A DNA stretch of 48,094 bases from Acetobacteraceae bacterium (GCA_049964515.1 JBMFXF010000001.1:1-48094); one strand, 5' to 3'. Shown: positions 338 to 25,988, counted from the stretch's first letter. The notes: generated by a model not told the origin, from the sequence alone. Made by a program: numbers and translations.

Positions 338-1921
338 ATGATGTATTTCAGCCGCCTGAAAGCCACCCTGGTGCTGGCCGTGTGCCTGCTGGGGGTGCTG
401 CTGTGCCTGCCCAATGCGTTCAAATCCCCCGCCCCGTGGCTGCCGTGGCGGACCGTGCATCTCGGCCTCGATCTGCAGGGCGGCAGCTATCTGCTGATGC
501 AGGTCGATATGCAGGCGGTGGTGAAGGAGCGGCTGAACGGGCTGCTGGACAGCACCCGCCAGGCGCTGCGCCACGCCCCGGGCGGGCAGCCGGTGTTCTA
601 TCGCTCGCTGGTGGCCGATGTCGCCAGGAACCGGGTGGTGCTCACCCTGCGCGATCCGGCGCAGACCGACGCCGCGCTGTCGGTGCTGCGGCCGCTGGCG
701 GCGATCGACCCGGCGACCGGCACGCCCGATCTCACCGTCACCTCGCCGGCGCCGGGGCGCATCCTGCTCACCCTGTCGGAGGCGGCGCTGGCCTCGCGCG
801 CCAGTGCGGCGGTGCAGCAATCGATCGAGATCGTCCGCCGGCGCATCGACGCCACCGGCGTGGTCGATCCCGAGATCACCCGCCAGGGCGACTCCCATAT
901 CGTGGTGCAGCTGCCCGGGCTCGGCGATCCGTCGCGGATCAAGCGGCTGCTCGGCCGGACCGCGCATATGACCTTCCAGCTGGTCGATGACAGCGTCGCG
1001 CCGGGCACGGTGCCGCCGCCCGGGGTGTCGTTCCTGCCGATGCAGGCCGACCCGAAGCAGAAGATCGCGGTCTATGACCGGGTCGATGTGGACGGCTCGG
1101 ACCTCACCAACGCCACCGCCGGCACCGATCCGCAGACCGGGGAATGGGTGGTCAATTTTACCTTCAACTCGATCGGCGCGCGCCGGTTCGGCGATGTCAC
1201 CCGCACCCATGTCGGCCGCCGCTTCGCCATCGTGCTGGACGGCAAGGTGCTGAGCGCGCCGGTGATCCGCGAGCCGATCCTGGGCGGGTCGGGGCAGATC
1301 AGCGGCAGCTTCACCGCCCGCTCGGCCTCCGACCTCGCGCTGCTGCTGCGCGCCGGGGCGCTGCCGGCGCCGCTGACGGTGGTGGAGCAGAACTCGATCG
1401 GGCCCGAGCTCGGGGCCGATTCGATCCGCGCCGGGGCGATCGCGCTGGGCGCCGGGTTCCTGCTGGTGATCGCCTTCATGGGCATCTTCTACGGGGTGCT
1501 GGGCTGGTTCGCCAACGTGGCGCTGGTGGTGAACCTGGTGCTGATGCTGGCGGTGATGTCGCTGTTGCAGGCGACGCTGACCCTGCCCGGCATGGCGGGC
1601 ATCCTGCTGACGCTGGGGATGGCGGTGGACGCCAACATCCTCATCAACGAGCGGGTGCGCGAGGAACAGAGGGCGGGCCGGCCGCCGCTGGCGGCGCTGG
1701 AGCACGGGTTCCAGCGCGCCTACCGGACCATCTTCGATTCCAACGCCACCACCTTCCTGGCCCATGTGATGCTGTTCATCTTCGGGTCGGGGCCGGTGCG
1801 CGGCTTTGCCGTGACCATCACCATCGGCATCGCCACCAGCCTGTTCACCGCCTGGATGCTGACGCGGCTGCTGGTGTCGCGCTGGTATATCGCCGTCCGC
1901 CCGCGCCTGCTTCCGGTGTAG
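338..1921 (+). CDS. secD: Protein translocase subunit SecD
   Basis: 527 aa. N-terminal TM helix, large periplasmic region, and a C-terminal multi-TM block with SecD/F-type motifs (GPELGADSIRAG, LTLPGMAGILLTLGMAVDANILINERVREE). Followed 6 nt later by secF. Confidence 0.93.
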   Translation: MMYFSRLKATLVLAVCLLGVLLCLPNAFKSPAPWLPWRTVHLGLDLQGGSYLLMQVDMQAVVKERLNGLLDSTRQALRHAPGGQPVFYRSLVADVARNRVVLTLRDPAQTDAALSVLRPLAAIDPATGTPDLTVTSPAPGRILLTLSEAALASRASAAVQQSIEIVRRRIDATGVVDPEITRQGDSHIVVQLPGLGDPSRIKRLLGRTAHMTFQLVDDSVAPGTVPPPGVSFLPMQADPKQKIAVYDRVDVDGSDLTNATAGTDPQTGEWVVNFTFNSIGARRFGDVTRTHVGRRFAIVLDGKVLSAPVIREPILGGSGQISGSFTARSASDLALLLRAGALPAPLTVVEQNSIGPELGADSIRAGAIALGAGFLLVIAFMGIFYGVLGWFANVALVVNLVLMLAVMSLLQATLTLPGMAGILLTLGMAVDANILINERVREEQRAGRPPLAALEHGFQRAYRTIFDSNATTFLAHVMLFIFGSGPVRGFAVTITIGIATSLFTAWMLTRLLVSRWYIAVRPRLLPV

Positions 1922-1926
1922 CCCCC

Positions 1927-2901
1927 ATGCTGTTCTCCCGCCTGCTGCGTCCGATGTTCCGCCTGGTGCCCGACGGCACGAGGATCCCGTTCATGCGCGG
2001 GCGGTTCATGGGGCTGATCGTCTCGGCCATTCTGTCCTCGGGCTCGATCGCGTTGTTCTTCTATCCGGGGCTGAGCTACGGGATCGATTTCTCGGGCGGG
2101 ATCGTGTTGCAGGTGAAGACGCCGGGGCCGGCTGATTTCGGCGCCATCCGCGCCGCGCTGGCGGCGCGCTCGCTGCCGCAGCAGGGGGTGCAGAGCTTCG
2201 GCGCGCCCGACCAGGTGCTGATCCGACTGGGCGTGCAGCCCACCGCCAAGGCCACCGACGCGGCGGTGGCGAAGGTGCGCGCCGCGCTGGCCGAGGCCGT
2301 GCCGGGGGCGAAGATCCTGCGCACCAACACCATCGGGGCGGCGGTCTCGGCGCAGCTGTTCCGCAACGGCATCCTGGCGCTGGTGCTCTCGCTGGCGATG
2401 ATCCTGGTCTATATCTGGTTCCGCTTCGAGTGGCAGTTCGCGGTCGGCGCGGTGGTGACGCTGGTGCTGGACATCACCAAGACCATCGGCTTCCTGGTGC
2501 TGACGCATTTCGATTTCGACCTGGTGATGGTGGCGGCGATCCTGACCGTGCTTGGCTATTCCACCAACGACAAGGTGGTGGTGTATGACCGGGTGCGGGA
2601 GAATCTGCGCAAATACAAGACCATGCCGCTGCGCGAGCTGATCGATCTGTCGATCAACGAGACGCTGAACCGCACCCTCGGGACCTCGATGACGGTGTTC
2701 CTGGCGGCGCTGCCGCTGGCGCTGTTCGGCGGCGAGTCGATCTCGGGGTTTGCCTGGGTGATGCTGTTCGGGATCGTGATCGGGACGTCGTCGTCGATCT
2801 TCATCGCGGCGCCGATTCTGCTGTTCCTGGGGGAACACCGGCTGCGGCGGGATGCCGCGGCGCCGGCGGCGGCGCGGGCACGGGTGGAGGCGAAGCGCTA
2901 A
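1927..2901 (+). CDS. secF: Protein translocase subunit SecF
   Basis: ATG 1927 is in frame within ORF 1144..2901. 324 aa. Motifs GIDFSGG and LGYSTNDKVVVYDRVRENL plus 6 predicted TM helices are typical of SecF. The upstream part of the long ORF is a frame artefact overlapping secD. Confidence 0.93.
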   Translation: MLFSRLLRPMFRLVPDGTRIPFMRGRFMGLIVSAILSSGSIALFFYPGLSYGIDFSGGIVLQVKTPGPADFGAIRAALAARSLPQQGVQSFGAPDQVLIRLGVQPTAKATDAAVAKVRAALAEAVPGAKILRTNTIGAAVSAQLFRNGILALVLSLAMILVYIWFRFEWQFAVGAVVTLVLDITKTIGFLVLTHFDFDLVMVAAILTVLGYSTNDKVVVYDRVRENLRKYKTMPLRELIDLSINETLNRTLGTSMTVFLAALPLALFGGESISGFAWVMLFGIVIGTSSSIFIAAPILLFLGEHRLRRDAAAPAAARARVEAKR

Positions 2902-3020
2902 CCCTCGTCCTCCGCCTCCTCCTCGCCATCGGTCAGGCGCATCTGCTTGAGCGGCAGCGGCGGATGCTTCTTCCGCATCTCCCGGAAGCGGCGGTCGATG
3001 CCGAACGGCGGTCGGGCTTG
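2898..3020 (-). pseudogene. 3'-terminal remnant (about 40 codons) of a paralogue of the 236-aa gene at 7272..7982
   Basis: Minus-strand translation QARPPFGIDRRFREMRKKHPPLPLKQMRLTDGEEEAEDEG* aligns with the C-terminus of the 7272..7982 product (GKPLSGMARRGREMLKEHQPLPFKQMRLTDGEQELAETED*). The 64-nt DNA core 2922-2985 matches 7299-7362 at 58/64 positions by hand alignment. No credible start codon or N-terminal part is present. Its stop codon overlaps the secF stop. Confidence 0.55.
2922..2985. repeat. Direct repeat copy A (partner at 7299-7362)
   Basis: ctcgccatcggtcaggcgcatctgcttgagcggcagcggcggatgcttcttccgcatctcccgg versus the 7299-7362 sequence: same orientation, 58/64 identical by hand alignment, 4377 bp apart, flanking the giant ORF. 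Confidence 0.8.
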
Positions 3021-3150
3021 CCGTCGGGTCGAAACGTGGTCTAGAAAATGCAACCGTTGGCCGGCGAGGCCGCCATACGGGACATCCGGACCGAGATCGG
3101 CGGAGTTTGGTCCGCTCCCCCAAGGCACCGACGCAAGCGGAGGCAAACCA

Positions 3151-6100
3151 ATGTCCGATGTCCAACCCCCGACCCGTCCCCGCAGCGGCCTGCGCGGCAG
3201 CACCGATGCTCCGCCACGGCCGACGGCGCCCCGCCCGCGGGGGAGCGACGGCGACCTCCGCGCCGACTGGGTCAAGCGGGTGCTGGGTGTCACCGTACCG
3301 CCTCCGGGGCAGCAGCCCCAACCCAAATCCAGCCCCAAGCCGTATCGGACCCGGCGGCAGGAGCTGGAGGACGCCCAGCGGGAGCGTTCGGCGAAGGCGC
3401 TGGTCGAGGCGATGGAGTTCGACGCCAAGCTGATCGACGGCCTGCCCGTTGGCACCAATACCGACGAGATCCGTTCCATCCTGTCCGAGCACGCCGTCAA
3501 GGTCCCGGACGAGACCAAGGCGTTCGCCGGTCTTTCCGATTTCCAGAGCATCCAGGAACTCGCGCCGGAGAAGCGGGAGGGTCGGCTTCGCGGGGTTGCA
3601 TCCGTGCTTGCCGCGGTGAAGGACCGGCGCCAGCGGCTGGCGGCGGCGATCGAATCCGCGCCGCGGCCCTGGAGCGAAGCGGACACCCAGGCGATCGGCG
3701 ATGGGCGGCGGCTGCTGGCGCGCATCAGCGCCCATGTGCCGGAGGAGTTCCTGAGCCTCGGCGATCAGCTGCAGGACCGGATCGCCACCCTGTGCGCCAG
3801 CCCCGAGGAGAAGAAGCAGATCCTGGCGCGCGAGAAGCAAGGCTTCCTCAACAGCAAGGGCGAGGACATCACCGCCACCCTGGGCGGGGCGTTCAAGGAG
3901 GTGATCGAGCCGGTGGGGATGAAGAAGTTCGAGCGGATGAACTTCTTCTTCGACCAGTTCGTGTCCGCCCCGCCGGTGAAGGAGCTCGACAAGCTGGGGC
4001 AGATCACCACCAAGGTGGTGCAGAAATGCTACCGCATCATGGATGCCGGCGGCGATCTCGATGACGTGCAGGCGCTGATGGAGCGCACCGGCATCCCCGA
4101 GACCTGGTGGCCGCCTGCCTTCGTCGAAACGCTACAGGCCTGGCGCAAGGCCGAACGGGAGATGCAGAAGGACCGCGTCAGCAAGCTGATGGCGCAGAGC
4201 GACTACGACTTCACCTCGCCCGGCGACGTGCTGAAATTCTTCCAGGACGTGGCGCACGATGCCGCCGGGGAGGGGGCGTCGGACGCCAAGAAGGCGTTTG
4301 CCCGGATCATCAAGACGCGCGAAGTCTCGACCGCGATCGAGGAGTTCACCAACAGCGTGAAATCGCGTTGGGGCTTTGCGACCGAAACGAAGAACTGCTT
4401 CGAGGCGATGGATTTCAGCACCCTGGAGCCCAGCCTCGCCAAGCAGCTGACCGACAATATCATCTCCGCCGAGAAGCAGCTCACCTCGGTCATCAGCACG
4501 GTCTCCTCGATCGGCGACAACAAGGTGACGAAAGAGCTGCTGCCGGAGGTGGCCAAGCTGGCCGGGGAGCTGGCGCCGGGCATCGCGATCGCGGTGGCGG
4601 GGATCAACCTCGGGCTGGCGCTGGCCGAGCTGGCCGAGCAGACCGCGATGGTGGTGCAGACCGGCAGCATGAAGACGCAGGCGCGCAGCCAGCTGGGCCG
4701 GCGCGACATCCAGGACGGCGGTGCGTTCGTGCTGGCGCTGAACAACGAGCTCGGCGCGCGCAAGACCCTGGTCGCCAAGGCCGGGGTGGATGTGGCGGAT
4801 CAGGGCCTCGCGCTGACCGGAGCGCTGATCGAGGCCGGCGCGATCCATGTCGGCGGCTCCGCGGTGAAACTGGGGCTCAAGGTGGTCGGCAAGACCATCA
4901 AATACGGCGCCAACGCGATTTTCACCGGCATCGAATGGGCCGCGGCCGATCGCGCGCGTGCGCTGCTGGAGCAGGCGCAGGCGGGCAATCCGGTGGCGCG
5001 GATCCAGATTTTCGAGGATTCGCCGATGTACGCGAAGATGTACATCTGCTGTCTGGTGCGCGACGGCAACCCGCTGGCCCTTCGTTTCGTCGAGCAGCGC
5101 GGCATCGACGAATCCTCCATGACCAAGGCGGATTCGCTGATGGTGCTGGCCGAGTTCCTGATGAAGGACGCCGGCCAGCGCAACGAACAGGACGTGCCGG
5201 AGGGCTTCCTCGACGCGCAGTCGGGCGGGATCATCGGCAAGGTTCGTAACTACGGCGGCAAGGCGGTCGATGCGATCGGCAAGAAGGCGGTGCAGGCCGG
5301 CAACGCGATCAGCAAATCCAGCCGCAAGGTCCCGTATGACCCGGATTGGACCTTCAACGGCCCCATTCTGCTGACCGGCGACGCCTGGCAGGGCGTGAAG
5401 GACGCGGCTTACAAGGCCGGGCTGTTCGACGAGTCCACCGGCATCGGGGCGGCGCTGAAGAAGGCCGAGCCGCTGCTGGCGGAAGCGCGCAAGATATCGA
5501 CCAGCGGTGGGCCGCTCGATTCGCCTGAGATGAAGCAGCGCCGCACCAACGCCATGGCCGCGATGGCCGCGCTGGCCGAGGCGAGGGGTGCGGTGTGGAG
5601 CTACGCGCCGCTGGCCAATCCGGGGAAGGACGACAAGCAGGAGCCGCACAAGGGCATGTCCCTGTTCCTGGTACGGCTCAGCGAGGAGATCACCGCGACG
5701 ATCGACCGGATCGAGCAGGCGTTGCGCGAATCCGGTCTCAAGAACGTGGCCTGGGACCCGAAAATCCCGTCCAATCCGCTGGACGCCGTGGCCTGGCAGA
5801 CGAAATGGACCGAGGGGCGGGAAGCCGCCTGCCTGCCGGCCGGCGATGCCGGCATCGGTGCGGGCCTCCGCGCCGCCGCCTCGGCGCGCAGCAAGCGCGA
5901 CGGGCTCGATCGCGCCAAGGACCCGCAGGATCATCGCCGCGCCTCGGTCGCCTTGCAGGAGGCGCTCGGCGAGACGGTCGCGTCCTGCCTGAAGGGACTG
6001 AGCCTGGTCGGCGACGTGCCGGCCATGATGCGCTACGTCGAGGCGGTGCGCGACGCGGCGGCCAGGGAAGCGCGCGACCTGGACGGGGATTTGGCGGGCG

Positions 6101-7188
6101 ATTCGTGGCAGAACGCCCCGCCGGTCGATCCGCCCGAGCGGGTCTCGGCGGCCGGCTGGAAAACCATGTGGGACGCGGCCGGCAATGCCGGCATGTGCAA
6201 CCGTCGCGCCGGCGACGGCGGGCTGTCGGGCGCGCTGGCCGCGCTCGAGAAACAGCTCGCCGTGATCGCCAAGCGGGAGCGCGACCCGAAGAAGCTCGCC
6301 AAGGCGCGCTACGACATGGCGGATGCCTGCGGCAAGGTGTTGTTGGCATTCGAAGCGTTCCTCCGCGCCCAGGACGGCGCCGCCGACCAGGTGACCAACT
6401 ATGCGGTCAATATCCGCAAGCGCGCGATGGCCGAGATGACGGCCGCCGACACCGCGCGTGCCGAGGTCCCATTCTCCGCGCCGCAGAACGTTTCCGCGAC
6501 CGCCTGGGCCACCGCTTACAAAACCGCGGTGGAAGCCGGTGCGGTGATCGAGGCGGATTCGGCGGCGAGTGCGCTGACCAAGGCGCTGACCGATTACGAG
6601 AAGGCGGCGCAGGCCCTGGCGGGGGAGTTGCGCAAGGGCGCTTCCAAGGCATCCCGCGCGGCAGCGCTGGAAGTACAGAAAGCGCTGATCGCGGTGGCAA
6701 AGGCGCTGAATGTGGTGATGGCGGTGAACGGCTACTCCGAGCACCCGGAAATGGGCCGATACCTGCTGGCGGTCCAGACCAAGGTCAAGGAATGGCGGAC
6801 CGCCGACGCCCTGGCCCGGGCCTTGAAAGGGATCGACGATTCCGCGTTCGCACCTGCCGAGTTCACCATCGATCCCGGCCCGTTCAGCAAGATGAAGGCG
6901 GATGCCGAGAAGCTGGGCATCATCGCACCCGATCTGAAGACGGGCATGGGCGACGCGCTCAAGGACGCGAAATCCGCGTTGTCCGATTACGAGAAGAAAC
7001 GGAAGGGCAAGTCCTCCAAGGACCGGGAAGCCGCCGAGAAGGCGCGCCTCAAGGCGCGGGAAGCGGTGACCGGGCTCAAGCCGGTGGTGGAACGCCTGGC
7101 CGGCCTGTCCGAAAGCAAGAAATGGACGGGCTGGGTCGCCGCCGCGGCAAATGTCTGCGAGCAGCAACTGGCCGCTTTGGAGGGGTGA
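3151..7188 (+). CDS. Giant (1345 aa) alpha-helical repeat protein of unknown function, no domain recognised
   Basis: ATG 3151 is preceded by GGAGG (3139-3143). Protein-like composition (K/E/F/Y/N/I present) and GC-rich third positions, unlike the antisense shadow ORF. Pro/Arg-rich N-terminus, Gly/Ala-rich hydrophobic block (about 4560-4945), and five degenerate modules of about 120 aa from about 5330 to the end. No signal peptide seen. Confidence 0.8.
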   Translation: MSDVQPPTRPRSGLRGSTDAPPRPTAPRPRGSDGDLRADWVKRVLGVTVPPPGQQPQPKSSPKPYRTRRQELEDAQRERSAKALVEAMEFDAKLIDGLPVGTNTDEIRSILSEHAVKVPDETKAFAGLSDFQSIQELAPEKREGRLRGVASVLAAVKDRRQRLAAAIESAPRPWSEADTQAIGDGRRLLARISAHVPEEFLSLGDQLQDRIATLCASPEEKKQILAREKQGFLNSKGEDITATLGGAFKEVIEPVGMKKFERMNFFFDQFVSAPPVKELDKLGQITTKVVQKCYRIMDAGGDLDDVQALMERTGIPETWWPPAFVETLQAWRKAEREMQKDRVSKLMAQSDYDFTSPGDVLKFFQDVAHDAAGEGASDAKKAFARIIKTREVSTAIEEFTNSVKSRWGFATETKNCFEAMDFSTLEPSLAKQLTDNIISAEKQLTSVISTVSSIGDNKVTKELLPEVAKLAGELAPGIAIAVAGINLGLALAELAEQTAMVVQTGSMKTQARSQLGRRDIQDGGAFVLALNNELGARKTLVAKAGVDVADQGLALTGALIEAGAIHVGGSAVKLGLKVVGKTIKYGANAIFTGIEWAAADRARALLEQAQAGNPVARIQIFEDSPMYAKMYICCLVRDGNPLALRFVEQRGIDESSMTKADSLMVLAEFLMKDAGQRNEQDVPEGFLDAQSGGIIGKVRNYGGKAVDAIGKKAVQAGNAISKSSRKVPYDPDWTFNGPILLTGDAWQGVKDAAYKAGLFDESTGIGAALKKAEPLLAEARKISTSGGPLDSPEMKQRRTNAMAAMAALAEARGAVWSYAPLANPGKDDKQEPHKGMSLFLVRLSEEITATIDRIEQALRESGLKNVAWDPKIPSNPLDAVAWQTKWTEGREAACLPAGDAGIGAGLRAAASARSKRDGLDRAKDPQDHRRASVALQEALGETVASCLKGLSLVGDVPAMMRYVEAVRDAAAREARDLDGDLAGDSWQNAPPVDPPERVSAAGWKTMWDAAGNAGMCNRRAGDGGLSGALAALEKQLAVIAKRERDPKKLAKARYDMADACGKVLLAFEAFLRAQDGAADQVTNYAVNIRKRAMAEMTAADTARAEVPFSAPQNVSATAWATAYKTAVEAGAVIEADSAASALTKALTDYEKAAQALAGELRKGASKASRAAALEVQKALIAVAKALNVVMAVNGYSEHPEMGRYLLAVQTKVKEWRTADALARALKGIDDSAFAPAEFTIDPGPFSKMKADAEKLGIIAPDLKTGMGDALKDAKSALSDYEKKRKGKSSKDREAAEKARLKAREAVTGLKPVVERLAGLSESKKWTGWVAAAANVCEQQLAALEG
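5330..7185 (+). repeat. Five degenerate coding modules of about 350-410 bp inside the giant ORF
   Basis: Recurrent anchor: aromatic W..x3..W/Y, then G-hydrophobic-x-x-AL-x-x-x-x-x-x-E/K. Examples are DAWQGVKDAAYKAGLFDESTGIGAALKKAEPLL, AVAWQTKWTEG..AGDAGIGAGLRAAASARSK, AAGWKTMWDAAG..AGDGGLSGALAALEKQL, ATAWATAYKTAV..ADSAASALTKALTDYEK and FSKMKADAEKLG..LKTGMGDALKDAKSALSDYEK. Module boundaries are approximate. Confidence 0.6.
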
Positions 7189-7194
7189 GTCGGC

Positions 7195-7249
7195 GACCGC
7201 GCGCGACCGCTCGCGCGCGGTCCGGCCCCGCACCCGCCGGTGCGGGCCG
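7195..7249. terminator. Two adjacent GC-rich hairpins between convergent genes (probable bidirectional terminator)
   Basis: Perfect 12-bp stem gaccgcgcgcga / tcgcgcgcggtc (7195-7206 / 7211-7222, loop ccgc). It is followed by an imperfect stem cggccccgcac / gtgcgggccg (7223-7249). Located between the stop of the giant ORF (7188) and the stop of the 236-aa gene (7272). No clear U-tract. Confidence 0.5.
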
Positions 7250-7271
7250 GACTCCGGCTTGACGCTGCGCC

Positions 7272-7982
7272 CTAATCCTCGGTCTCGGCGAGCTCCTGCT
7301 CGCCGTCGGTCAGGCGCATCTGCTTGAACGGCAGCGGCTGGTGCTCCTTCAGCATCTCCCGGCCGCGGCGGGCCATGCCGGACAGCGGCTTGCCCTCCAC
7401 CGCCAGGGTCAGGACATCGCCCTTTTTCTCGTCGCCGGCGGCGGTGCCCCAGGTCACGGCGTGGATTCCGGTCTCCCGCACCAGCAACCCCATCAGCGCC
7501 TTGCCGCCCTTGGAGCGATGCAGCGCCATCCGACTGTCCTCCGGCTTCTGGCCCAGCGCCAGGGCGAAGTTCATCCGCAGCCCGCCATGCACCCGTTTCA
7601 GCGCCTTCAGCAGATAGGCGCGGAACGCCGCGGGGGTGGCGAAATCCTTTGCCGCCAGATCGTCGGCGAGTTTCTCGAGACGCTTGCGCTCGGCGGCGAT
7701 GTCGCGGTCGAGCCGGCGCAGCGCGGTGGCCAGCGCGGCCCCGTCGGGGATGGTCTTCGACTTCTCGGCCTCGGCCGCGGCGGCCTGGGCGGCGCCTTCC
7801 ACCTGCTCCAGCCGGTCCTCGGCCTGTTCGATCGTCTCTTCGTCGATCTCGCGGTCCAGGCGCTTGCGCGCCGATTCCCACGCGCGTAACGCGATTTCCA
7901 GCTTGGGCGCGGCGCGCAGCCCCTTGGGCTGGTTGTCCTGCCACCACCGTACCGTCAGTTCCGGCGGATCCTGTCGCGCCAC
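7272..7982 (-). CDS. Hypothetical 236-aa protein: N-terminal module related to the giant-ORF repeats, C-terminal conserved tail ..PLPFKQMRLTDGE..
   Basis: GTG start at 7982 with GGGAGG 6-11 nt upstream on the minus strand. Balanced, charged, helical N-half and a beta-like C-half. A remnant paralogue at 2898-3020 shows the C-terminus is a conserved coding sequence. Confidence 0.8.
   Translation of the reverse strand: MARQDPPELTVRWWQDNQPKGLRAAPKLEIALRAWESARKRLDREIDEETIEQAEDRLEQVEGAAQAAAAEAEKSKTIPDGAALATALRRLDRDIAAERKRLEKLADDLAAKDFATPAAFRAYLLKALKRVHGGLRMNFALALGQKPEDSRMALHRSKGGKALMGLLVRETGIHAVTWGTAAGDEKKGDVLTLAVEGKPLSGMARRGREMLKEHQPLPFKQMRLTDGEQELAETED
7299..7362. repeat. Direct repeat copy B (partner at 2922-2985)
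   Basis: See copy A. It lies inside the 3' end of the intact 236-aa gene. Confidence 0.8.
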
Positions 7983-8071: not shown

Positions 8072-9817
8072 ATGGACTATCAGGTCAATTTCGGACGCCT
8101 CGGCGCGACGGCGAAAACGGCGGCGCCGGGCAAGAAGTTCCGCCTCGCCCTGCTCGGTGATTTCTCCGGCCGCGCCAATGCCGGCAAGCTGGAAACCGGC
8201 GCCGCGCTCGCCGCCCGCAAGCCGATCCGGGTCGATGTCGATAACCTCGACGACGTGCTGGCGCGGATGAAGATCGAGCTGGCGCTGCCGCTGACCGAGG
8301 ACGGGGCGGTGATGGTCCCGATCGGGTCGATGGACGATTTCCACCCCGATCAGCTGGTGGCCAATGTCTCGCTGTTCGAGGAGCTGCGGGGGCTGCGCCG
8401 CAACCTCAACAACCGCGCCGGGTTCGAGAAGGCGGCGAAGCAGGTGATGGCCTGGAGCGGCGCCGAGCATTTGGCGGCACCGAAGCGGCGCGCCCGCGGC
8501 GCCTCGGTGGCGGCGGCGCGGCTGTCCGATTTCGCCCGGCTGATCGGCGCCCCGGCGGCGCCGCGCCCGGAGGAGGCGGAGGCCGACGCGCTGATCGCCC
8601 GGCTGGTGGGCCCGTTCATCAAGCCGGCCAAGGACCCGCGCCAGGACGCGCTGGTGGCGCAGGTGGACGAGGCGTTGTCGGCGGCGATGCGGCGGGTGCT
8701 GCACCACCCCGATTTCCAGACCGCCGAGGCGCTGTGGCGCGGGGTGGAGCTGCTGGTCCGCCGCATCGAGACCGGCGCCACGATGGAGATCATCCTTTAC
8801 GATGTCTCGGCCGAGGAGCTGGCGGCGGATCTGGCCGCCTCCGACCGGCTGGAGGACTCTGGCCTGTTCGGGATGCTGGCCGAGCAGCCGGCGCTGGACG
8901 CGCATCAGGGGCCGATTTCGGCGGTGATCGGGCTCTACGGGTTCGAGCTGGTGCCGCCGCACGCCGACCTGCTGGGCCGGATCGCGCAGATCGCGGCCGG
9001 CGCGGGGGCGCCTTTCATCGCCGCCATCGCGCCGGATGCGCTGGCGACGCCGATGCACGAGCAGAACCCGCTGGTGCAGGATGCGTTCGGCGCGCTGTTC
9101 GACCTGCCGGCCGCGGCCTGGCTGGGGCTGGCCACGCCGCGCTTCCTGCTGCGCCTGCCCTACGGGAAAAAGACCGACCCGATCGACAGTTTCGCGTTCG
9201 AGGAGTTCACCCGCCAGGAGGGGCTCGGCGGGATGCTGTGGGGGCACCCGGCGCTGATCCCGGGGCTGCTGCTGGCCGAGACCAACGCCCAGCAGGGGGC
9301 GAAGATGCGCCTGGGCACGGTGATGGGCGTGGGGGATATTCCTTATTACGTCTATATCGGGCCGGACGGGGAACAGGTGGCGCTGCCCTGCACCGAGCGG
9401 CTTTACACCGAGCGTCAGGCGGTGGCGGTGGCGCAGTACCGGGTGATGCCGCTGCTTTCCATCCGCGGCCGGCCGGAGCTGCGGCTGGGCTCGTTCACCG
9501 CGCTGGGGGGCAAGCCGCTGGCCGGGTTCTGGGCGCCGGCCGGGGTGGCGCCGCCGCCGCCTGCCCCGGCGCGGGCCGCGGCCCCGCCGCCGCGGGCGGA
9601 AGCGCCGGAGGAGCAGGAGGAGGAGGAGACCACGGACGCCGCGGCCGAAACCGAGACCGCCGAGGCGCCGGCCGAGACTGCCGCCGAGGAACCCGCCGCG
9701 GATGCCAGTGCCGACGATCTGGACGCGCTGCTGGCCAGCCTGAACGCCGATGCGCCCCCGGCGGCGGCCGACGAGACGGAGCCGGATCTGGACGCGCTGC
9801 TGGCCTCGTTGAAGTAG
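8072..9817 (+). CDS. T6SS sheath-like fusion protein: TssB(VipA)-like N-terminus plus TssC(VipB)-like core lacking the C-terminal domain, plus Pro/Ala linker and acidic tail
   Basis: ATG 8072 with GGGAGAG upstream. 581 aa. Residues 1 to about 120 (FRLALLGDFSGR, IRVDVDNLDDVLARMKIEL, MDDFHPDQLV, LFEELRGLRRNL) read like TssB. Residues about 175-510 (VLHHPDFQTAEALWRGVELLV.., ILYDVSAEELAADL, APFIAAIAP, PRFLLRLPYGKKTDPIDSFAFEEF, LWGHPA) run parallel to the bona fide TssC at 37018-38445 (ILHHPEFQALEATWRGVRLLL, LFDISKRELARTL, VPFIAAAAP, PRFLARLPYGYRTEPVDAFAFEEE, LWANPA). The tail carries DDLDALLASLN and PDLDALLASLK. Confidence 0.8.
   Translation: MDYQVNFGRLGATAKTAAPGKKFRLALLGDFSGRANAGKLETGAALAARKPIRVDVDNLDDVLARMKIELALPLTEDGAVMVPIGSMDDFHPDQLVANVSLFEELRGLRRNLNNRAGFEKAAKQVMAWSGAEHLAAPKRRARGASVAAARLSDFARLIGAPAAPRPEEAEADALIARLVGPFIKPAKDPRQDALVAQVDEALSAAMRRVLHHPDFQTAEALWRGVELLVRRIETGATMEIILYDVSAEELAADLAASDRLEDSGLFGMLAEQPALDAHQGPISAVIGLYGFELVPPHADLLGRIAQIAAGAGAPFIAAIAPDALATPMHEQNPLVQDAFGALFDLPAAAWLGLATPRFLLRLPYGKKTDPIDSFAFEEFTRQEGLGGMLWGHPALIPGLLLAETNAQQGAKMRLGTVMGVGDIPYYVYIGPDGEQVALPCTERLYTERQAVAVAQYRVMPLLSIRGRPELRLGSFTALGGKPLAGFWAPAGVAPPPPAPARAAAPPPRAEAPEEQEEEETTDAAAETETAEAPAETAAEEPAADASADDLDALLASLNADAPPAAADETEPDLDALLASLK
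9716..9814 (+). repeat. Duplicated 30-nt coding unit (9716-9745 and 9785-9814) encoding DLDALLASL(N/K)
   Basis: gatctggacgcgctgctggccagcctgaac versus gatctggacgcgctgctggcctcgttgaag. The first 21 nt are identical. The second copy ends at the stop codon. Confidence 0.85.
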
Positions 9818-10013
9818 CGGCCGGGGGGCGCTGATTTCCGGTCAAACCGAACCGACCGCCCGCCGGGGCCGGCCGAGGGCGCTCGCCGCAGGGGCTCGCT
9901 TGCAAAGATCGGCGGATGGTGGATAGGCTGCAACCCGGGCAGGCGGGTCGGCCGGCTGTCCGGAGAAGTTCGGCTCAAGCCGGGCACAGACCCGGCTGCC
10001 CGGGAGGAACACC

Positions 10014-11360
10014 ATGAAATCAGGTTTGTTTGCGGACGAACCGCTGTCACCGGCCGCACGACGCACCATCATCGCCGGCTTCGTCGGGTTCGCCGTCGAT
10101 TTCTTCGACATCTACCTGCCGGTGCTGGCGCTGGCGCCGGTGATCGGCTATTTCGAGCCGAAGGGCCTGAGCTCGGCGGCGGGCACGACGATCTACTATT
10201 TCACGTTCGCCGCCACCTTGCTCGGCCGGCCCTGCGGGGCAGTGATCTTTGGCCATTGGGCCGACAAGATCGGCCGCCGCCGCTGTACCATCATCAGCAT
10301 CGCCGGCTTCGGCATCCTGACCGCGCTGCTGGCGCTGCTGCCCGGCTATTCCAGCCTCGGCATCTGGGCGCTGGTCCTGCTGGTCGCGCTGCGCTTCATC
10401 GACGGCGTGTTCATGGGCGGGGAATACACCTCGAACAATACCCTGGCGCTCGAGATGGTGCCGCGGGAACGGCGCGGCTTCGTCGGCGGGTTGATGCAGG
10501 CGGCCTACCCGGTCGGGTTCGCCGCGGTCTCGCTGGTCACCTCGATCATGCTCGGCGTGACCACCAAGGCGCAATACTATCAATGGGGCTGGCGGATTCC
10601 GTTCCTGCTCGGCGGCGCTTTCGCCCTCGCATTCCTGATCTACTACCGCCGGGTGCCGGAATCGCAGATGTGGCAGGAGACCGAGAAAAGTGCCGCCCCG
10701 CTGCGGGAGGTAATGACCGGGCCGCATCAGCGCAGCCTCGGTCAGGTGTTTCTGATGATGTCCGGATTCTGGCTTGCCGCGCAGGCCGCGTCGGTGTTGC
10801 CTGGAATCATGATCCAGCACCTGCACGTGCCCGGCGAGCTGACCTCGAACGGGTTCCTGCTTGCGAGCATTCTGCAGTTCTTCGGCTTTATCGGTTGCGC
10901 CCTGTTCAGTCAGATGATCGGCCGGCGGCCGGCGATCGCATGGTGCGGCATCTTCGTGATGCTGGGCTCGCCGGCGCTCTATTTCCTGACCGTTGCGCAC
11001 GCGCTGGGCGGCGGGACGGTGATCGGCACCACCGCACTGGCCGGCCTGTTCTATGCGCTGGTGCTCGCTCCCTGGGGTATCGCAACCCCGTATATTTGCG
11101 AGCGCTTCCCGACCCAGGTCCGCGCGACCGGCTACGGCATGGGCTATAGCGTCGCGGTGGTGATTCCGGCCTTCGCCGGCTTCTATCTGCTCGGTTTGTC
11201 GAAGCTGATGCCCTATGTCTATACGCCGATGGTGCTGCTGGTCCTGGGCGGGGCGCTGATGATCGTCGGCGCATTGCTCGGGCCGGAAACGCGCCAGGTC
11301 GAGTTGCACCGGCCTGATCTCGGCGCCGCTCCGGCACGAATGCCTGGCCTGGCGCCCTGA
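10014..11360 (+). CDS. MFS transporter (metabolite:H+ symporter-like)
   Basis: 448 aa with GGGAGGA RBS upstream. About 12 hydrophobic segments. MFS-type loop motif GHWADKIGRRR between TM2 and TM3. Confidence 0.85.
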   Translation: MKSGLFADEPLSPAARRTIIAGFVGFAVDFFDIYLPVLALAPVIGYFEPKGLSSAAGTTIYYFTFAATLLGRPCGAVIFGHWADKIGRRRCTIISIAGFGILTALLALLPGYSSLGIWALVLLVALRFIDGVFMGGEYTSNNTLALEMVPRERRGFVGGLMQAAYPVGFAAVSLVTSIMLGVTTKAQYYQWGWRIPFLLGGAFALAFLIYYRRVPESQMWQETEKSAAPLREVMTGPHQRSLGQVFLMMSGFWLAAQAASVLPGIMIQHLHVPGELTSNGFLLASILQFFGFIGCALFSQMIGRRPAIAWCGIFVMLGSPALYFLTVAHALGGGTVIGTTALAGLFYALVLAPWGIATPYICERFPTQVRATGYGMGYSVAVVIPAFAGFYLLGLSKLMPYVYTPMVLLVLGGALMIVGALLGPETRQVELHRPDLGAAPARMPGLAP

Positions 11361-11574
11361 CGGCGGGTGCCGCGGCGCGCAAACGGCTGCAGGCAGGGCC
11401 TGGGCGCAGAGCGGCATCGGAATGCCTCGTGCACCCGTGGTAGCCATGCCGCCGAAACGAAGCGCGTGGCGCCTGTCCCCCCGGATGGTGTCGAGGCTGT
11501 GGGGCAGTGGCCCGCCGGGTGCCTCCGCCCCGGCCGGCTGGGCAGCCCCGACGGCGGCGGCTATAGGGTCGGAC

Positions 11575-20233: not shown

Positions 20234-21733
20234 ATGCGCTCCGCCCTCGCCGCCCTGGACCAGGGCACCAGCTCCACCCGCTGCCTGATCTTTGCCCCCG
20301 ACGGGCGCGTGCTGGGCGCGGCGCAGCGCGAGCACCGCCAGATTTTCCCCGCGCCCGGCTGGGTGGAGCACGACCCGGAGGAGATCGCGACGAATGCCGA
20401 GGCGGTGATGGCCGAGGCGCTGGCGGCGGCGCGGCTGCGCGCGACCGATCTGGCGGCGCTCGGGATCGCCAACCAGCGCGAGACCACGCTGCTGTGGGAC
20501 CGCGCCACCGGCCGGCCGCTGCACAACGCGCTGGTCTGGCAGGACACGCGCACCGATGCGCTGGTGGCGGCCTATGCCGCGGATTTCGGGGTGGACCGGT
20601 TCCGCGCCGCCTCCGGGCTGCCGCTGGCGAGCTATTTCAGCGCCCTGAAGCTGCGCTGGCTGCTGGATTCCCTCCCCGGCGCGGCGGCCCGCGCGGCCGA
20701 GGGCGCGCTCGCGTTTGGCACCATCGACAGCTGGCTCGCCTGGCGGCTGACCGGGCAGCATGTGACGGATGTGACCAACGCCAGCCGCACCCTGCTGATG
20801 AATCTTGCGACGTTGCAGTGGGACCCGGCGCTGTTGGATGCGTTCGGGATTCCGGCCGCGGTGCTGCCGCGGATCGTGGCCTCCTCCGGGGTGATCGGGG
20901 AGGCGCGCGGGGCGCTGGCCGGGGTGAAGCTGGCGGGGCTGCTGGGCGATCAGCAGGCGGCGCTGGTAGGGCAGGGTTGTTTTGCCCCGGGGGAGGCGAA
21001 GGTGACCTACGGGACCGGCTGCTTCCTGCTGGTCCATTGCGGGGATCGGCCGGTGACCTCGCGGGCCGGGTTGATCGGGACGGTGGCGTATCGGTTCGGC
21101 GAGGCGCCGGCGGCCTATGCGCTGGAAGGCTCGGTCGCCGTCACCGGCGCGCTGGTGCAGTGGTTGCGCGACAATCTGCGCCTGATCGGCTCCAGCGCCG
21201 AGGTGGAGGCGCTGGCGGCGAGCGTGCCGGACAACGGGGGCGTGTATGTGGTGCCCGCGTTTTCCGGCCTGTTCGCGCCATGGTGGCGAGCGGATGCGCG
21301 CGGCGTGATCGCCGGCCTGACCCGCTTCGCCACCGCCGGGCATATCGCGCGGGCTTCGCTGGAGGCGACCGCGTTCCAGGTGATGGATGTGGTGGAAGCG
21401 ATGCGGCGCGACGGCGCGGCGCCGGTGTCGCTGCGCGTCGATGGCGGGATGGTGGCGAACGCGACGTTGATGCAGTTCCAGGCCGACATGCTGGACCTGC
21501 CGCTGGATCGCGCCGCCGGGGCGGAGGCGACGGCGTGGGGGGCGGCGGTGGCGGCCGGGCTGGCGGTGGGGGTATGGCCGGGGCTCGAGGCGGTGCGCGG
21601 GCTGGCGCGGACGGACCGGCGGTTCGCCCCGGCGATGGGGGCGGACCGGCGGGCGGCGCTGGCGCGTTCGTGGCGCAAGGCGGTGGAGCGGTCGTTCGGC
21701 TGGGCCGAGCCCGTCAACGACGATACGGCCTGA
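20234..21733 (+). CDS. glpK: Glycerol kinase
   Basis: 499 aa. [36 protein letters not shown] and [13 protein letters not shown] are classic GlpK/FGGY motifs. Confidence 0.95.
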
Positions 21734-24700
21734 GCCCCACCAGGATCAGCACGAACCCGGCGAGCAGGATCCCGTCGGCCGGTTCCGGCGTCGGCACGCT
21801 GTCGGCGATCAGCTGGCCGCCACTTGCCAGGTTGTAGGTCAGGCCGCCGAGATAGAGGTTGGTCGCGAACAGCGGGTCGTAATAGATGTTGTAGCCGTTG
21901 CCAGTGATGTTGGTGATGCTGTCGCCCAAGATCGCCGCCCCGGTGAGGATGTCGGTGTAGAACGCGACGTTGGCCGCGCTCACGCCGTCGCTGAGGCTGA
22001 GGCTCTGGCCGCTGTCGATGGCGAGCGTGTTCCAGGCGAAATTGTTCGCATACCCTGCGGCCCCGGTGCCGAGATCGGCGCCCGCCAGCGCCAGGGTGTG
22101 CAGGGCCGAGGCGCCGCCGGGGGCGAATTCCAGGGTCGCGCCGGTGGTGTTCCAGGCGGTGTTCTGCGTGCTTTGGTTGAGGAACCCGCCTTCGACCACG
22201 TAGCGATCGCCGGCGGCGGCCTGGACCACGGCGGTGCTGGATTCCACCAGATCGCCGGAGAAGGTCTGGGCAGACGGGTCGGAGATGACGGTGCCGTTGT
22301 TGGTGAAGGTGCCGGCGTAGCTGGCGGTGCCGACATGGGTGGTGATGGTGCCGTTGTTGGTCACCGCGCCGTTGAACACCGCCGCCGCGTGATCGACGGT
22401 GATGGTGGCGCCCTGGTTGTTCACCACGCTGCCGTTGAAGGTGCCGGTGCCGCCGGCGATCAGGACGGTGCGGTTGTTGGCCAGCGCGGAGGCGGTGAAG
22501 ACGCCATAGCCGGAGATGGTGCCGTTGTTGGCGATCGCCTGGCCCGAGGCGTCATCGAAATTGCCGCCGGCGAGGCTGATGGTGGCCTCATCGCTGAACG
22601 CCCCGGTCAGCAGCAGCTGCCCGCCGGCGCCGGCGATGAGGGTGGTCTGCTTGGTCGTGGTGACCGGGCCGCCCAGGGTCAGCGTGCCGCCCAGCGCCTG
22701 GATGGTACCGCCCGTGTCGCCGATCGAATTGTTGATGCGCCCGACCCCCTCGATGGTGCCGGTGTTGTCGATGACGCTGCCGGTCAGCAGGGCGCTGGTG
22801 GCGGTGGCCTGGATCACGCCGGCGTTGATGACCGCCCCGGAGAGGGGGGTCAGGCTGGTCAGCCCGGAATCGACGGTGAGCGTGCCCTCGTTTCGGAACT
22901 GTGCGGTGGCGATGCGGCCGGTGCCGCCGATCAGCCCGCTGGTGTTGTCCAGAATCCCGCCGCCCGACAAGGTGCCGCCGTCGAGCTTGATGAGCCCGTC
23001 ATTGGCCAGCGTGCTGCCGGTGGCGATCTGGAACGGGGCGGTGGTGCCGGGGGCGAGGTCGATCTCGCCGGTGTTGTCGTTGGCGCCGGTGGCGGACAGG
23101 GTGAAGCTGCCGCCCGACTGGGTGAACAGGTTGGTGTTGAGGAAGGCCCCGGCCCCGGCGATGCCGCCGTTGCCGGAAAGCGTGCTGTTGTTGGTGAACC
23201 CGGCGGAGGTGGAGACGATGCCGCCGTTCAGGGTGAACTGCCCGGCATTGGTGACCTGGGTGGCCGTCATGCTGCCGGCGACGGTGGCGGCGGCGTTGTT
23301 GGTGAGGGCGCCGGCAGCCCCGCCGGTCGTTTCCGCGAACAGGCCGTTGTTGACGACCCCGCCCACCACGCTCCCGCCCGAGAGGAAGAAGGTGCTAGCG
23401 GACGAGACCGCCACGTTCCCGGTCAGGGTTCCGCCTTGCAGGGAATAGGTGCCGAGCGAGCCCGGGGCGAGGCCGAGCGCGAGCGTGCCCTGACTGACAG
23501 TGCTGCCGTTCGACAGCAGCACCGGTGGCCCCCCTGCCCCGGTCAGGGTGTTGGTGCCCCCGGTCTGGGTGACGTTGGCGGTCCCGGCCAGCCCGACCAC
23601 CTCGGCCGCGAAGCTCATGCTGCCGCCGCTCAGCGTGTAGGTACCGCTGTTGCCGGCGGCGGCGCCGAGCTCGAGGGCGCCGATGCCGGCGCCGTTGGTG
23701 CCGGCGGTCTGCGTCACGATGTAGCTGGAATGGGTCTGCCCGGCGCTGTCCAGCACCTCGTTGCCGCTCGCGGACAGCGTGCCGGAGAGGTTCATCTGGC
23801 CGAAATCCAGCGTGCCGCCGCCCAGCAGCATCGAGCCGGTGGTGGCGATATCCATGGTGCCGGCGTGCAAGGTTCCGCCGCTGAGCAGATAGCCCGCCTC
23901 CGTTCCGGAGGACGCGACGGTGAGGGTGGTGGCGCTGTTGGTGCCGCCCGATTGGGTGAAACTGTTGGTGCCGGCGGCGATGGTTTCGGCCTGCGCCGAG
24001 AGCGTGCCGGCTTGCAGCGAATACACTCCTTGCTGGCCGGAATTGGTGTCGCTGGCCACATAGAGGGTTCCCGCGGCGACGGTGTTGCTGCCGCCGGTCT
24101 GGAGGGTGGTGACCACCGACGCGGCCCCGATCCCGGTCAGTTGCTCGTCGCCGGTGGCGGTGACCGTGCCGGCGATGGTCAGCAGGTTGGTGAACAGCGA
24201 GCCGCCGTTGAAGGCGAAGCTGCCGTTGGCATTCACGGTCACATGACCGGTCGCGGTCAGGGATCCGCCCAACAGCGTGTAGCTGCCGCCGCCGCTGCCC
24301 TGGGCGATGGCCAGCGTGCCGGTGGTGTTGGTTCCGGCTTGCTGAACGAAGCTCCCCTGGCCGTTGTTGCCCACCACTTCGGCACCGGCGGTGAGTTGGG
24401 CGGTGAGGCCGTTCAGATCGTAGGTCCCGCTGCTGGTGGCGGCATCCCCCAGCATCAGGGTTCCCGCGGCCAGCGTGCTGCCGTCCGACAGCGTGACGTT
24501 GCTCGCGCCGTTGGGCGCGATGGTGTTGGTCCCGGAGGTTTGGTCGAGGGTACCGGTCCCGGCCAGCCCGACCACCTCGGCCCCGGCGCTCAGCTGCGAC
24601 GAAATCTCGAGGTTATAGAAGCCTGTATTGCCGACGAAGCTTCCGCTCGTCCCGGTGGTCCCGCTGGCCCCGATCTCGAGCGCGCCGCTGACCGAGTTCG

Positions 24701-25799
24701 AGCCACCTTTCTGATTCACGCGGTAGCTGGTGTTGGCCGCGCCGGCCTGGTCCAGCACCTCGTTGCCGGAGGCGCTGAGGGTGCCGAAGCTGCCCAGAGT
24801 GCCGAAATCCACCGCCCCGCCGTTGAACTCCAGCGTGCCGGAGCTGGCCACCGAGATACTCGGCGCGGTCAGGGTTCCTTGCGAGAGCGTATAGCTTGCC
24901 ACCCCGCCGCCGCTGATCCCCGGCGCGGCCTGATATCCCGCCGAGCCGATGGTGAGCGTCCCGCCGGACTGGACGGTGTTGGTGCCGCCGCCCTGGACGA
25001 ACTGCGCGTTGCCGCCCGACCCCAGCGACTCGCTGGCGGCCGACAGAGTCCCGCCGTTCAGCGTGTAGGTATCCAGGTTCGGCGTATAGGCGGTGACCAC
25101 GCCGTTGGTGATGGTGGTGGTACCCGACACGCCGAGCTCGAAGCTGCCGGTCACCGTGTTGCTGCCGGCGGATTGGGTGATCGAGCGGGTGGTGTTGGTG
25201 GGGTTGGCCCCATCCAGGATTTCGGCGCCCGAAGCGGTCACCGAGCCGCCCAGGTTGATCTGCATCTGGGAAAAATCGGCCGTGCCGCCGTTGAACTGGA
25301 ACAGCCCCTGGTCCCCCGCGGTGCCGTCGCCGACGGAAATGGTGTTCGCGATCAGCGTGCCGCCGCCCAGGGTATAGGTGCCCTGGCCGTGAAGCAGCCC
25401 GTTGGCCGCGGTCTGGCCGAGCAGAGAGAGCGTCTTGACCGTGTTCGTCCCGTTGAGCTGATCGAACGTGCCGATACCGTTCCCTAACCCCAGCTGCTCG
25501 GTTCCGGCCACAACACTCCCGCCCGAGAGTTCATAGGTGCCCGCGCCGACAAAATAGGGAAAGACGGGATTACCGAGCCCGATTTCCAGCGAAGCGGTAT
25601 CGTTTTGCGCCTGCGACTGCGACAGGGTGCCGCCGCCGCTCCCGATACTTTCCGCCGTGGCCGAGACTCCGGTCGAGGGAACCGTATAATTGGACCCCTC
25701 GTTGACGCCGTTGATGACCACCTGCGCCCGCGCCGGACCCGTCATCGCGATCCCCAGCCCCAGCAGCGCCGCGATCCCCCACCCCCACCGCCGCTTCAT
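21714..25799 (-). CDS. Large secreted beta-helical repeat protein (autotransporter-associated beta-strand repeat-like) with C-terminal PEP-CTERM sorting signal
   Basis: 1361 aa. Signal peptide [25 protein letters not shown]|Q. Dozens of G/T/S/N-rich repeats of the form GGTLTxxG..TxxGG. The C-terminus [27 protein letters not shown] is PEP plus a TM helix plus a basic tail. No beta-barrel translocator domain seen. Confidence 0.85.
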
Positions 25800-25988
25800 T
25801 TCCGATCTTCCCCGTCACGTGCCGACTGCCTAATACTTTAGAATACGTTTCGGCCGCGGTCCAGCGGAATCTTCGGTTGCGTACGCCCAAATTCCACAGC
25901 TTCCGGTTGTGCCCGCCCGCTCGCCCCGGGGCGCTTGATCGCCAGGGCGGGCCGGCGGATGATCGGGCAGAAACGCAAGAGATCGGCC

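Follow-up and report, generated by a model that had tools for sequence, protein, structure and literature searches.

A plus-strand gene at positions 3151–7188 of a 48,094-nt stretch of DNA from an Acetobacteraceae bacterium (GCA_049964515.1 JBMFXF010000001.1:1-48094; the whole stretch is called the window) encodes a protein of 1345 residues, referred to here as the giant, that is tentatively read as accessory cargo (an effector) linked to a type VI secretion system (T6SS). The giant would act on membranes and would not be an enzyme; gene context and a structural model favor this reading, whose probability is placed somewhat below even. A T6SS link is suggested because the giant gene, which is separated by a 236-aa gene from a TssB-TssC' fusion gene in the window, is again found near a fusion gene, in the order fusion, ClpV, Hcp and giant, at a locus from a different lineage (L019). 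The giant is regarded as accessory because a near-identical sister strain (L005) lacks it, a 96-nt direct repeat flanks it and two metagenome contigs (L009 and L010) break within that repeat. A membrane-active shape is suggested by the confidence of the core model, by the polarity of the core in 36 family members and by its median hydropathy. A non-enzymatic nature is suggested because the residues that are invariant in the core and full-length alignments of the family comprise only Ala, Gly, Tyr, Lys, Pro and Trp.

The giant protein, its family and its predicted core

The open reading frame (ORF) of the giant starts with an ATG at position 3151, which is preceded by a GGAGG ribosome-binding site (3139–3143), and ends with a stop codon at positions 7186–7188. 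Long spurious ORFs abound in the window because its G+C content is ∼70%. The codon-position GC values of the giant in its stop-to-stop frame (0.66/0.49/0.88; positions 2902–7188) reproduce the housekeeping-gene pattern of the window. Together with the ribosome-binding site, these values bear out the statement of an earlier note, made from the sequence alone, that the giant ORF is a real gene. A scan for promoter and terminator consensus sequences was uninformative at 70% GC.

The N-terminus of the giant contains no hydrophobic signal-type segment in the hydropathy profile, in agreement with the earlier assignment of no signal peptide. Invariant alignment columns of the family are concentrated in two peaks. 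One peak is formed by the FKE-IEP, FER-F-FD and WWPP-F-QAWRK-ER motifs at residues 248–336, and the second peak corresponds to the core (residues ∼455–735). A Gly/Ala block at residues 466–600 is composed of 20% Ala, 14% Gly and 12% Leu. The strongest hydrophobic segment of the giant, and the sole strong one, spans residues 474–492 (Kyte-Doolittle 19-residue mean of 1.97), and a weaker segment is found at residues ∼553–576 (1.2–1.3). The last 620 residues (726–1345) contain 20% Ala. In a profile self-alignment of this part, in-register off-diagonal matches occur at offsets of ∼136, 260, 375 and 500 residues with probabilities of 98, 96, 93 and 78%, respectively. The corresponding five modules, each opened by a Trp/Phe anchor, have approximate boundaries at residues 736–871, 872–992, 993–1108, 1109–1232 and 1233–1345. 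The composition by region and the self-alignment probabilities agree with the four regions and the five modules of ∼120 residues that had been proposed from the sequence.

No match to the giant was found in Pfam, NCBIfam, PADLOC or PHROGs, and a profile search of PDB sequences returned nothing below an E-value of 0.19; the description of the giant as a protein with no recognizable domain therefore holds. A word-indexed search of 5.8 billion proteins yielded five clusters (one with 97%, three with ∼38% and one with 31% identity). Two contigs from metagenome-assembled genomes also carry relatives, one from Acetobacteraceae and one from Alcaligenaceae. A HMMER profile search of 1.84 billion representatives collected 213 proteins at E ≤1e-3, including 156 at E ≤1e-10 and 69 at E ≤1e-30, and ∼40 of the 150 best profile matches listed are full-length proteins of 1240–1560 residues. 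On the basis of these profile matches, the giant is assigned to an unnamed family of ∼200 sequence clusters. Other relatives are longer (1700–2050 residues), and their profile matches are confined to the central core region, which is located near their C-terminus; ten of these long relatives contain no Pfam domain. Wherever a source name of a family member or homologue was retrieved, it reads only 'hypothetical protein'. Searches of 72,556 plasmids (tblastn with the giant and three relatives as queries), 50,697 phage records (tblastn with the giant) and 2.9 million viral contigs found no relative. The giant family and three elements described below, namely a partner family, the 236-aa family and an N-terminal tag, are absent from every curated library searched. 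On the 17,841-nt contig of the family member P0005, two giant genes (1396 and 1406 aa), the second a possible paralogue, are arranged in tandem. They are followed by two small genes on the minus strand, of 186 and 229 aa, and by genes for an ECF sigma factor and an HD-domain response regulator.

A hidden Markov model (HMM) of the core matches 130 proteins. The AlphaFold model of the core, generated from a 36-sequence alignment, has a pLDDT of 80.6 and a pTM of 0.73 and contains three long antiparallel helices (H1–H3) followed by a small helical subdomain. Residues A609, G612, A616, Y627, A628 and K629 are invariant across 24 aligned full-length proteins, and no catalytic-type residue is found among the invariant positions of the 24-sequence and 36-sequence alignments. 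Because short loops join the long helices, the start of H1, the end of H2 and the start of H3 are located at one pole of the predicted bundle (pole A). Averaged over 36 family members, pole A exhibits hydropathy values of +0.59 to +0.74 with 12–17% charged residues and 33–42% Gly/Ala/Ser, whereas the opposite halves of the helices (pole B) exhibit values of -0.33 to -0.67 with 29–31% charged residues and 24–25% Gly/Ala/Ser. Given this contrast, the Gly/Ala block would represent the hydrophobic pole of a polarized three-helix bundle, and the presence of a hydrophobic pole on the bundle is supported by the model. The maximum 19-residue hydropathy of the core has a median of 1.61 and is at least 1.6 in 47 of 93 relatives. 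Compared with the buried hydrophobic helical hairpin (∼35–40 residues) of colicin/VasX-type pore-forming domains, the core contains one segment of ∼20 strongly hydrophobic residues and two weaker segments, located at one pole of the bundle.

The earlier comparison of the Gly/Ala block with glycine zippers is not supported as far as a conserved motif is concerned. The giant lacks a GxxxGxxxG motif and contains only small-xxx-small spacings, whose register is not conserved in the family. G484 is conserved in 28 of 36 sequences, and positions 488 and 492 are not occupied by small residues (Lys/Arg at position 492 in 23 of 36). Foldseek searches with the core model, carried out as the earlier note had proposed, revealed no known fold, with no match below an E-value of 0.1 in the PDB or BFVD. 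The best PDB matches, which are non-significant, are the three-helix bundles of BAR, I-BAR, F-BAR and eisosome proteins (E 0.46–4; TM-score ≤0.3), and the best BFVD matches, also non-significant, include minor tail and tape-measure proteins (E 0.35–2; TM-score ≤0.3). A model of residues 61–1260 from a 5-sequence alignment was poor (pLDDT of 58 and pTM of 0.29) apart from better-defined C-terminal modules, and a fold search with this model was uninformative.

A strain-variable insertion and its tag

The giant gene is a strain-variable insertion relative to L005, whose DNA is 94–98% identical to the window on both flanks. In L005, accB, accC, secD and secF are followed by a PIN/antitoxin pair, then by a 234-aa gene and the fusion gene, and no giant gene is present. 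The homology between L005 and the window stops at position 2897 and resumes at position 7293. In place of the toxin-antitoxin pair, the window therefore has a 4.4-kb segment that consists of a small-gene remnant, the giant gene and positions 7272–7292 of the 236-aa gene. The pair, a PIN-domain toxin and a PSK_trans_fac antitoxin (VapBC; positions 5385–6302 of L005), occupies the slot of the giant (2898–7292 in the window), and the interval between secF and the 236-aa gene is thus a variable site.

The giant gene had been described as bracketed by copies of one small gene. The downstream copy is intact, but the upstream copy was overstated and amounts to a 3' remnant of ∼42 codons. The C-terminus encoded by the remnant (...TDGEEEAEDEG) is closer to the L005 allele (...TDGEEEEDEG) than to the intact copy in the window. 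The arrangement would fit an incoming fragment in which the giant gene was convergent to a copy of the small gene and which recombined within the small gene. The metagenome contigs L009 and L010 (4374 and 4355 nt), which encode a 97% identical giant, begin and end inside the 96-nt repeats, and their lengths nearly equal the repeat spacing of 4377 nt. Their ends are compatible with an assembly that broke because strains carrying the insert coexisted with strains lacking it, and a circular or tandem form of the segment is possible.

The N-terminus of the giant carries a short motif, WVKRVLGV, that is referred to as the tag. In a six-frame scan, the tag was detected once each in the window, L001, L003 and L004. 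The tag, with the consensus W-[VIL]-x-R-V-L-[GE]-V, is located on the giant in the window and on an adjoining small partner protein at eight other loci. A partner gene of 170–300 aa is positioned directly upstream of the giant gene on the same strand in L001, L003, L004, L011, L012 and L013, and a partner homologue is found downstream of the giant in L017. All seven partners have W-[VIL]-x-R-V-L-G-[VIL], or a sequence close to it (...LAV in L012), at their start. A variable linker, in many cases rich in Pro, connects this motif to a conserved helical domain (∼130 residues). In L016, a divergent 150-aa upstream protein contains AWLARVLEV. No partner gene is present in the whole 48 kb of the window.

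The tag is missing from giants that have their partner immediately upstream, and several partner-less giants carry it or a variant (window, L018, P0129, P0130 and P0169). The giants of L014 and L016 contain the sequence W-E-T-x-x-L-x-[IL]-[LF]-[GN]-L. The tag is thus provided mostly either in cis or in trans, with the exceptions of L016 and L017, in which it is present on the small protein and the giant alike. We know of no described motif that matches the tag consensus, and the tag, the partner family and the 236-aa protein have no match among the known T6SS marker and adaptor families in Pfam and NCBIfam. Placement of the tag on the giant or its partner recalls how known T6SS effectors are equipped with marker motifs and adaptors.

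The 236-aa gene, a candidate adaptor gene, is kept beside the fusion gene in L005 (94%) and L006 (41%). Its C-terminal domain resembles the N-terminal domain of the giants P0185, P0219, P0133, P0271 and P0261 and the protein encoded upstream of the L002 giant. The similarity to the P0185 domain is weak (hhalign probability of 62% with E 8e-5; iterated HMM E 0.007 in a small database). The P0185 domain itself, which spans ∼130 residues, matches the L002 upstream protein (phmmer E 6e-6) and the N-termini of P0219, P0271, P0133 and P0261. In pairwise BLAST, the L002 upstream protein showed no significant similarity to the 236-aa protein or the partner, and weak support came only from profile methods. 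Occurrence of a domain as a free-standing protein in one genome and as a fusion in another is classic evidence for a functional link. The small beta-domain protein appears to be free-standing in the window and fused to the N-terminus of the giant in P0185, which would suggest such a link, on weak statistics. Residues 5–117 of the 236-aa protein align in register but weakly with four of the five giant modules (hhalign P 0.002–0.05), and its N-terminal part matches a repeat of P0137 in an HMM search (E 4e-5 in a small database); this part may represent a single copy of the repeat module of the giant. A PADLOC search with the 236-aa protein retrieved only LmuB at E 0.06.

Weighing a role in type VI secretion

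The earlier note had placed the giant one gene from a TssB-TssC' fusion, and Pfam matches locate the fusion gene at positions 8072–9817 with the 236-aa gene in between. L019 (62% G+C) contains a co-directional row of genes that encode a 1059-aa fusion homologue, an 84-aa lipoprotein, ClpV, Hcp, the giant P0185 and a 164-aa ORF product. The first 358 residues of the 1059-aa protein are homologous to the window fusion (37–38% identity over 306 residues; E 2e-42). The 1059-aa protein also matches the TssB-like N-terminus and has greater similarity to the fusion than to the canonical TssC of the window. No baseplate or membrane-complex genes are located within 10 kb in L019. The 164-aa ORF overlaps the P0185 gene by 4 nt, encodes no transmembrane segment and is not conserved elsewhere. 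Altogether, 2 of ∼18 independent loci place a family member near a fusion-type protein (one gene away in the window and three in L019). Chance adjacency at this frequency is unlikely according to a rough estimate in which T6SS genes are assumed to make up ∼0.5% of the genome.

Several observations weigh against a T6SS-linked cargo role. The co-occurrence with T6SS genes that the earlier note had suggested testing is repeated in L019 but not at ∼15 other loci with readable flanks, where housekeeping or partner genes and no T6SS gene were found within 3–10 kb (housekeeping flanks were read in L013, a 378-kb contig, and in L011, L012, L014, L016, L002, L021, L022, L023 and the P0005 contig). The near-identical strain L005 keeps the small gene and the fusion gene without the giant. 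Since the fusion occurs in >1900 clusters and the giant family is rare, the giant is not a requirement for the fusion. No PAAR, VgrG, MIX, FIX, Rhs or known adaptor domain was identified in the giant, the partner or the 236-aa protein using Pfam and NCBIfam. No co-directional gene follows the stop codon at 7188, the next gene being convergent, and no candidate for a membrane immunity gene was found in the window. The link between the 236-aa protein and the N-terminal domain of P0185 has weak statistics. The first bundle helix is not a classical transmembrane helix because it carries Asp/Glu at position 486 and Lys/Arg at position 492 in most family members. Finally, a gene for a CesT-type chaperone of type III secretion systems is located near P0211 in L020 (35% GC), which would point to another route in that lineage.

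P0211 is a distant, 1827-aa member of the family and is encoded near PspA, a serpin and a leucine-rich repeat (LRR) protein. Together with the CesT-type chaperone, these L020 genes are suggestive of a bacterium that is associated with a host, and this branch of the family may use a different secretion route. If the giant is delivered, a eukaryotic target would fit better than a bacterial one because no membrane-type immunity gene is present. The missing immunity gene and the eukaryote-type neighbors in L020 (serpin, LRR and CesT) are hints that the targets may be eukaryotic and that some lineages may use other secretion routes.

As T6SS-linked cargo, the giant would be produced in the cytoplasm as a soluble helical rod and recruited to the T6SS via the tag, the neighboring 236-aa protein or both. 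Once delivered, the giant would disturb the target membrane by inserting the hydrophobic pole of its bundle. The five C-terminal modules may act as a spacer or provide surfaces for binding or oligomerization. A horizontally moving accessory gene would be the most economical reading in combination with this cargo role. Among the three roles that the earlier note had listed without ranking, T6SS cargo or a pore former is the one tentatively favored, whereas a ruler or core structural component fits poorly, as the gene is missing in L005.

VasX of Vibrio cholerae is a large membrane-disrupting T6SS effector that contains hydrophobic helices and uses accessory proteins for loading. The giant resembles VasX in its size of >1000 residues, the lack of an enzymatic motif, the hydrophobic helices, the nearby T6SS genes and the putative accessory loading. 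Unlike VasX, the giant shows no sequence or Pfam kinship to it, has no MIX motif or colicin-type domain (Pfam and NCBIfam, E up to 0.1), has no membrane immunity gene beside it and carries its hydrophobic part as the pole of a mid-protein bundle. The predicted elongated helical bundle with a hydrophobic tip at one pole, presumably soluble before insertion, is reminiscent of ClyA, Hbl/Nhe, MakA/B/E and YaxAB/XaxAB, but the giant is three to four times larger, contains five extra modules and is found in another gene context. No ClyA-type fold was retrieved from the PDB by Foldseek below an E-value of 0.1; MakE appeared at E 1.7–2.3 with the low-confidence full model, and nothing of this type was obtained with the core model. 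As in MIX, FIX and RIX effectors and the systems with DUF4123, DUF1795 and DUF2169 adaptors, a short N-terminal element is combined with a small neighbor that possibly carries or recognizes it. Tde1 is a glycine-zipper T6SS effector in which small-residue helices are implicated in membrane passage (PMC10240207). The giant differs from Tde1 in the absence of a strict GxxxGxxxG motif and the lack of conservation of its small-xxx-small spacing.

Very long all-helical sequences with Gly/Ala-rich hydrophobic stretches and internal repeats are also a feature of the tape-measure proteins of phages and extracellular contractile injection systems. A tape-measure role or a phage origin was rejected, given that the giant has no tail-module context, no PHROG or Pfam match and no viral, phage or plasmid relative and that the BFVD matches are non-significant. 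BAR, I-BAR and F-BAR domains share three long antiparallel helices of ∼40 residues with the core. BAR domains bind membranes through the charged concave face of a dimer. The core of the giant instead has a hydrophobic pole, and its Foldseek matches to BAR domains are non-significant. The giant may thus be likened to known large membrane-directed effectors, yet it departs from VasX and colicins, ClyA, tape-measure proteins and BAR domains.

The lack of a signal peptide, the housekeeping surroundings of most loci with at most one small partner gene, and the non-catalytic invariant residues would also suit a non-secreted cytoplasmic protein that sits on its own inner membrane or self-assembles. 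Such a scaffold, or membrane-shaping or stress protein, would be anchored by the bundle pole and extended by repeats that form a rod, and its T6SS adjacency would be coincidental. The BAR, I-BAR, F-BAR and eisosome bundles among the best non-significant folds and the proximity of PspA to P0211 point in the same direction, although every fold match has an E-value above 0.1 and a TM-score below 0.3. Absence from a 94–98% identical strain and a rare and patchy distribution are not expected of a housekeeping scaffold, and the repeated adjacency to the TssB-TssC' fusion, Hcp and ClpV would be left unexplained; a scaffold is therefore considered unlikely. That adjacency would be accounted for if the giant were a non-delivered structural or regulatory partner of the fusion, for example an assembly factor, tether or stabilizer that functions with Hcp and ClpV. 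Co-location with fusion-type proteins in two distant lineages, the restriction of L019 to fusion, ClpV, Hcp and giant (genes for a baseplate or membrane complex are absent within 10 kb), the elongated repetitive helical build and the divergent pairing of the 236-aa gene with the fusion gene in three genomes are consistent with a partner of this kind. However, the sister strain and most of the >1900 fusion-bearing lineages have no giant, most giants have no nearby fusion gene, and the conserved hydrophobic pole would have no obvious role, which makes this explanation quite unlikely.

The occupation of the slot by a VapBC toxin-antitoxin pair in the sister strain raises a further alternative, in which the giant is the membrane-disrupting executioner of a two-gene conflict module of the abortive-infection type, with the partner or an ATPase as the sensor and the tag as a pairing peptide. 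A two-gene unit of partner and giant recurs, and in L002 an AAA ATPase gene (3574–4539, plus strand), whose product weakly matches IetA and TRIP13 types, is located upstream of the genes for the helical protein and the giant. The L002 ATPase gene contains an in-frame stop (3967–3969), and no ATPase is found at any other giant locus. Moreover, no protein of the module has a convincing PADLOC match, no other defense or mobile-element genes flank the loci, and the searches of 2.9 million viral contigs and of the phage and plasmid records detected no relative. An executioner role is accordingly judged improbable. 

The tentatively favored T6SS-linked cargo role has a more specific version, in which the giant family, the small beta-domain protein, the fusion, Hcp and ClpV constitute a distinct T6SS-derived module. 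The sheath-like fusion would handle very long helical cargo, with the tag supplied in cis or via the partner. This version is given little probability; if true, both the loading route and the effector marker would be new. More generally, a T6SS link would define an unannotated family (∼200 clusters) of very large non-enzymatic membrane-directed proteins and would provide a functional lead on the widespread, unstudied TssB-TssC' fusions of Acetobacteraceae and relatives. The tag and the partner or adaptor arrangement could then guide searches for further cargo, in the way that the MIX, FIX and RIX motifs have done. The predicted core, a three-helix bundle that is hydrophobic at one pole and contains a conserved, buried acidic residue, could be a new design for membrane insertion. 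If the T6SS link is wrong, the giant still represents a large conserved protein family with a clear, testable domain map.

Mapped features and neighboring genes

Table 1. Features of the giant gene, its insertion site and the neighboring genes in the window
Feature	Position	Strand	Description and basis
secD	338–1921		Upstream of the giant; with secF (ending at 2901), no T6SS genes upstream
Small-gene remnant	2898–3026	-	Last ∼42 codons of a second copy of the 236-aa gene; BLASTP 55% aa identity, E 1e-11; abuts the secF stop
Left 96-nt direct repeat	2916–3011		Inside the small-gene remnant; 86% identical to 7293–7388; spacing 4377 nt
Ribosome-binding site GGAGG	3139–3143	+	7 nt ahead of the ATG; direct sequence reading
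Giant gene	3151–7188	+	1345 aa, all-helical, unnamed family; ORF and translation, codon-position GC, homologues
Pro/Arg-rich N-terminus (aa 1–65)	3151–3345	+	23% Pro, 12% Arg; no signal peptide, no hydrophobic stretch
N-terminal tag WVKRVLGV (aa 40–47)	3268–3291	+	Six-frame motif scan
Helical N-terminal region (aa 66–454)	3346–4512	+	Conserved FKE-IEP, FER-F-FD, WWPP-F-QAWRK-ER; helices in low-confidence model
Conserved core domain (aa 455–735)	4513–5355	+	Common to the whole family; core HMM, AlphaFold
Three long antiparallel helices (aa 476–516, 525–563, 569–610)	4576–4980	+	Core model; ∼40 residues each
Small helical subdomain, ARAGNP-AR ... YAKMYI	4981–5220	+	Most conserved residues of the family
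Five degenerate modules of ∼115–135 aa	5356–7185	+	Profile self-alignment; pLDDT 70–90 in first model
236-aa gene, candidate adaptor	7272–7982	-	Convergent with the giant, divergent from the fusion gene
Right 96-nt direct repeat	7293–7388		3' end of the intact 236-aa gene; L005 homology resumes exactly at 7293
TssB-TssC' fusion	8072–9817	+	Pfam PF05591, PF05943; VipA and VipB N-terminal domain, no VipB_2; acidic tail
tssJ, tssK, tssL, tssM, vgrG, tssC, Hcp-like gene	28171–39180	+	21 kb downstream; Pfam, tssJ by tblastn

The fusion family comprises >1900 related clusters, with 60–97% identity among the matches listed, and the fusion gene usually heads an fha-tssJ-K-L-M-vgrG cluster without a giant. 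A search of the literature that was available returned no natural TssB-TssC fusions. The acidic tail of the window fusion is composed of Ala, Pro and Glu and ends in two copies of DLDALLASL. In the downstream T6SS cluster, positions 34849–39180 (plus strand) contain vgrG followed by a full-length tssC (VipB and VipB_2) and a gene for a 244-aa Hcp-like protein. No separate tssB is located ahead of this tssC, and no clpV or fha was detected by tblastn in the 48 kb. The fusion gene may supply the TssB part for the T6SS of the window.

A second giant ORF is located on the minus strand at positions 21714–25814 (1366 codons from stop to stop). Its product is rich in Gly, Thr, Ser and Asn and unrelated to the giant of positions 3151–7188, has no Pfam or NCBIfam match and ends in a C-terminus that looks like a PEP-CTERM sorting signal. 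A second indel is found near the insertion site of the giant. Window positions 9820–11528, which contain an MFS transporter gene (10014–11360), are absent from L005, where the fusion gene is directly followed by the SpoU methylase region.

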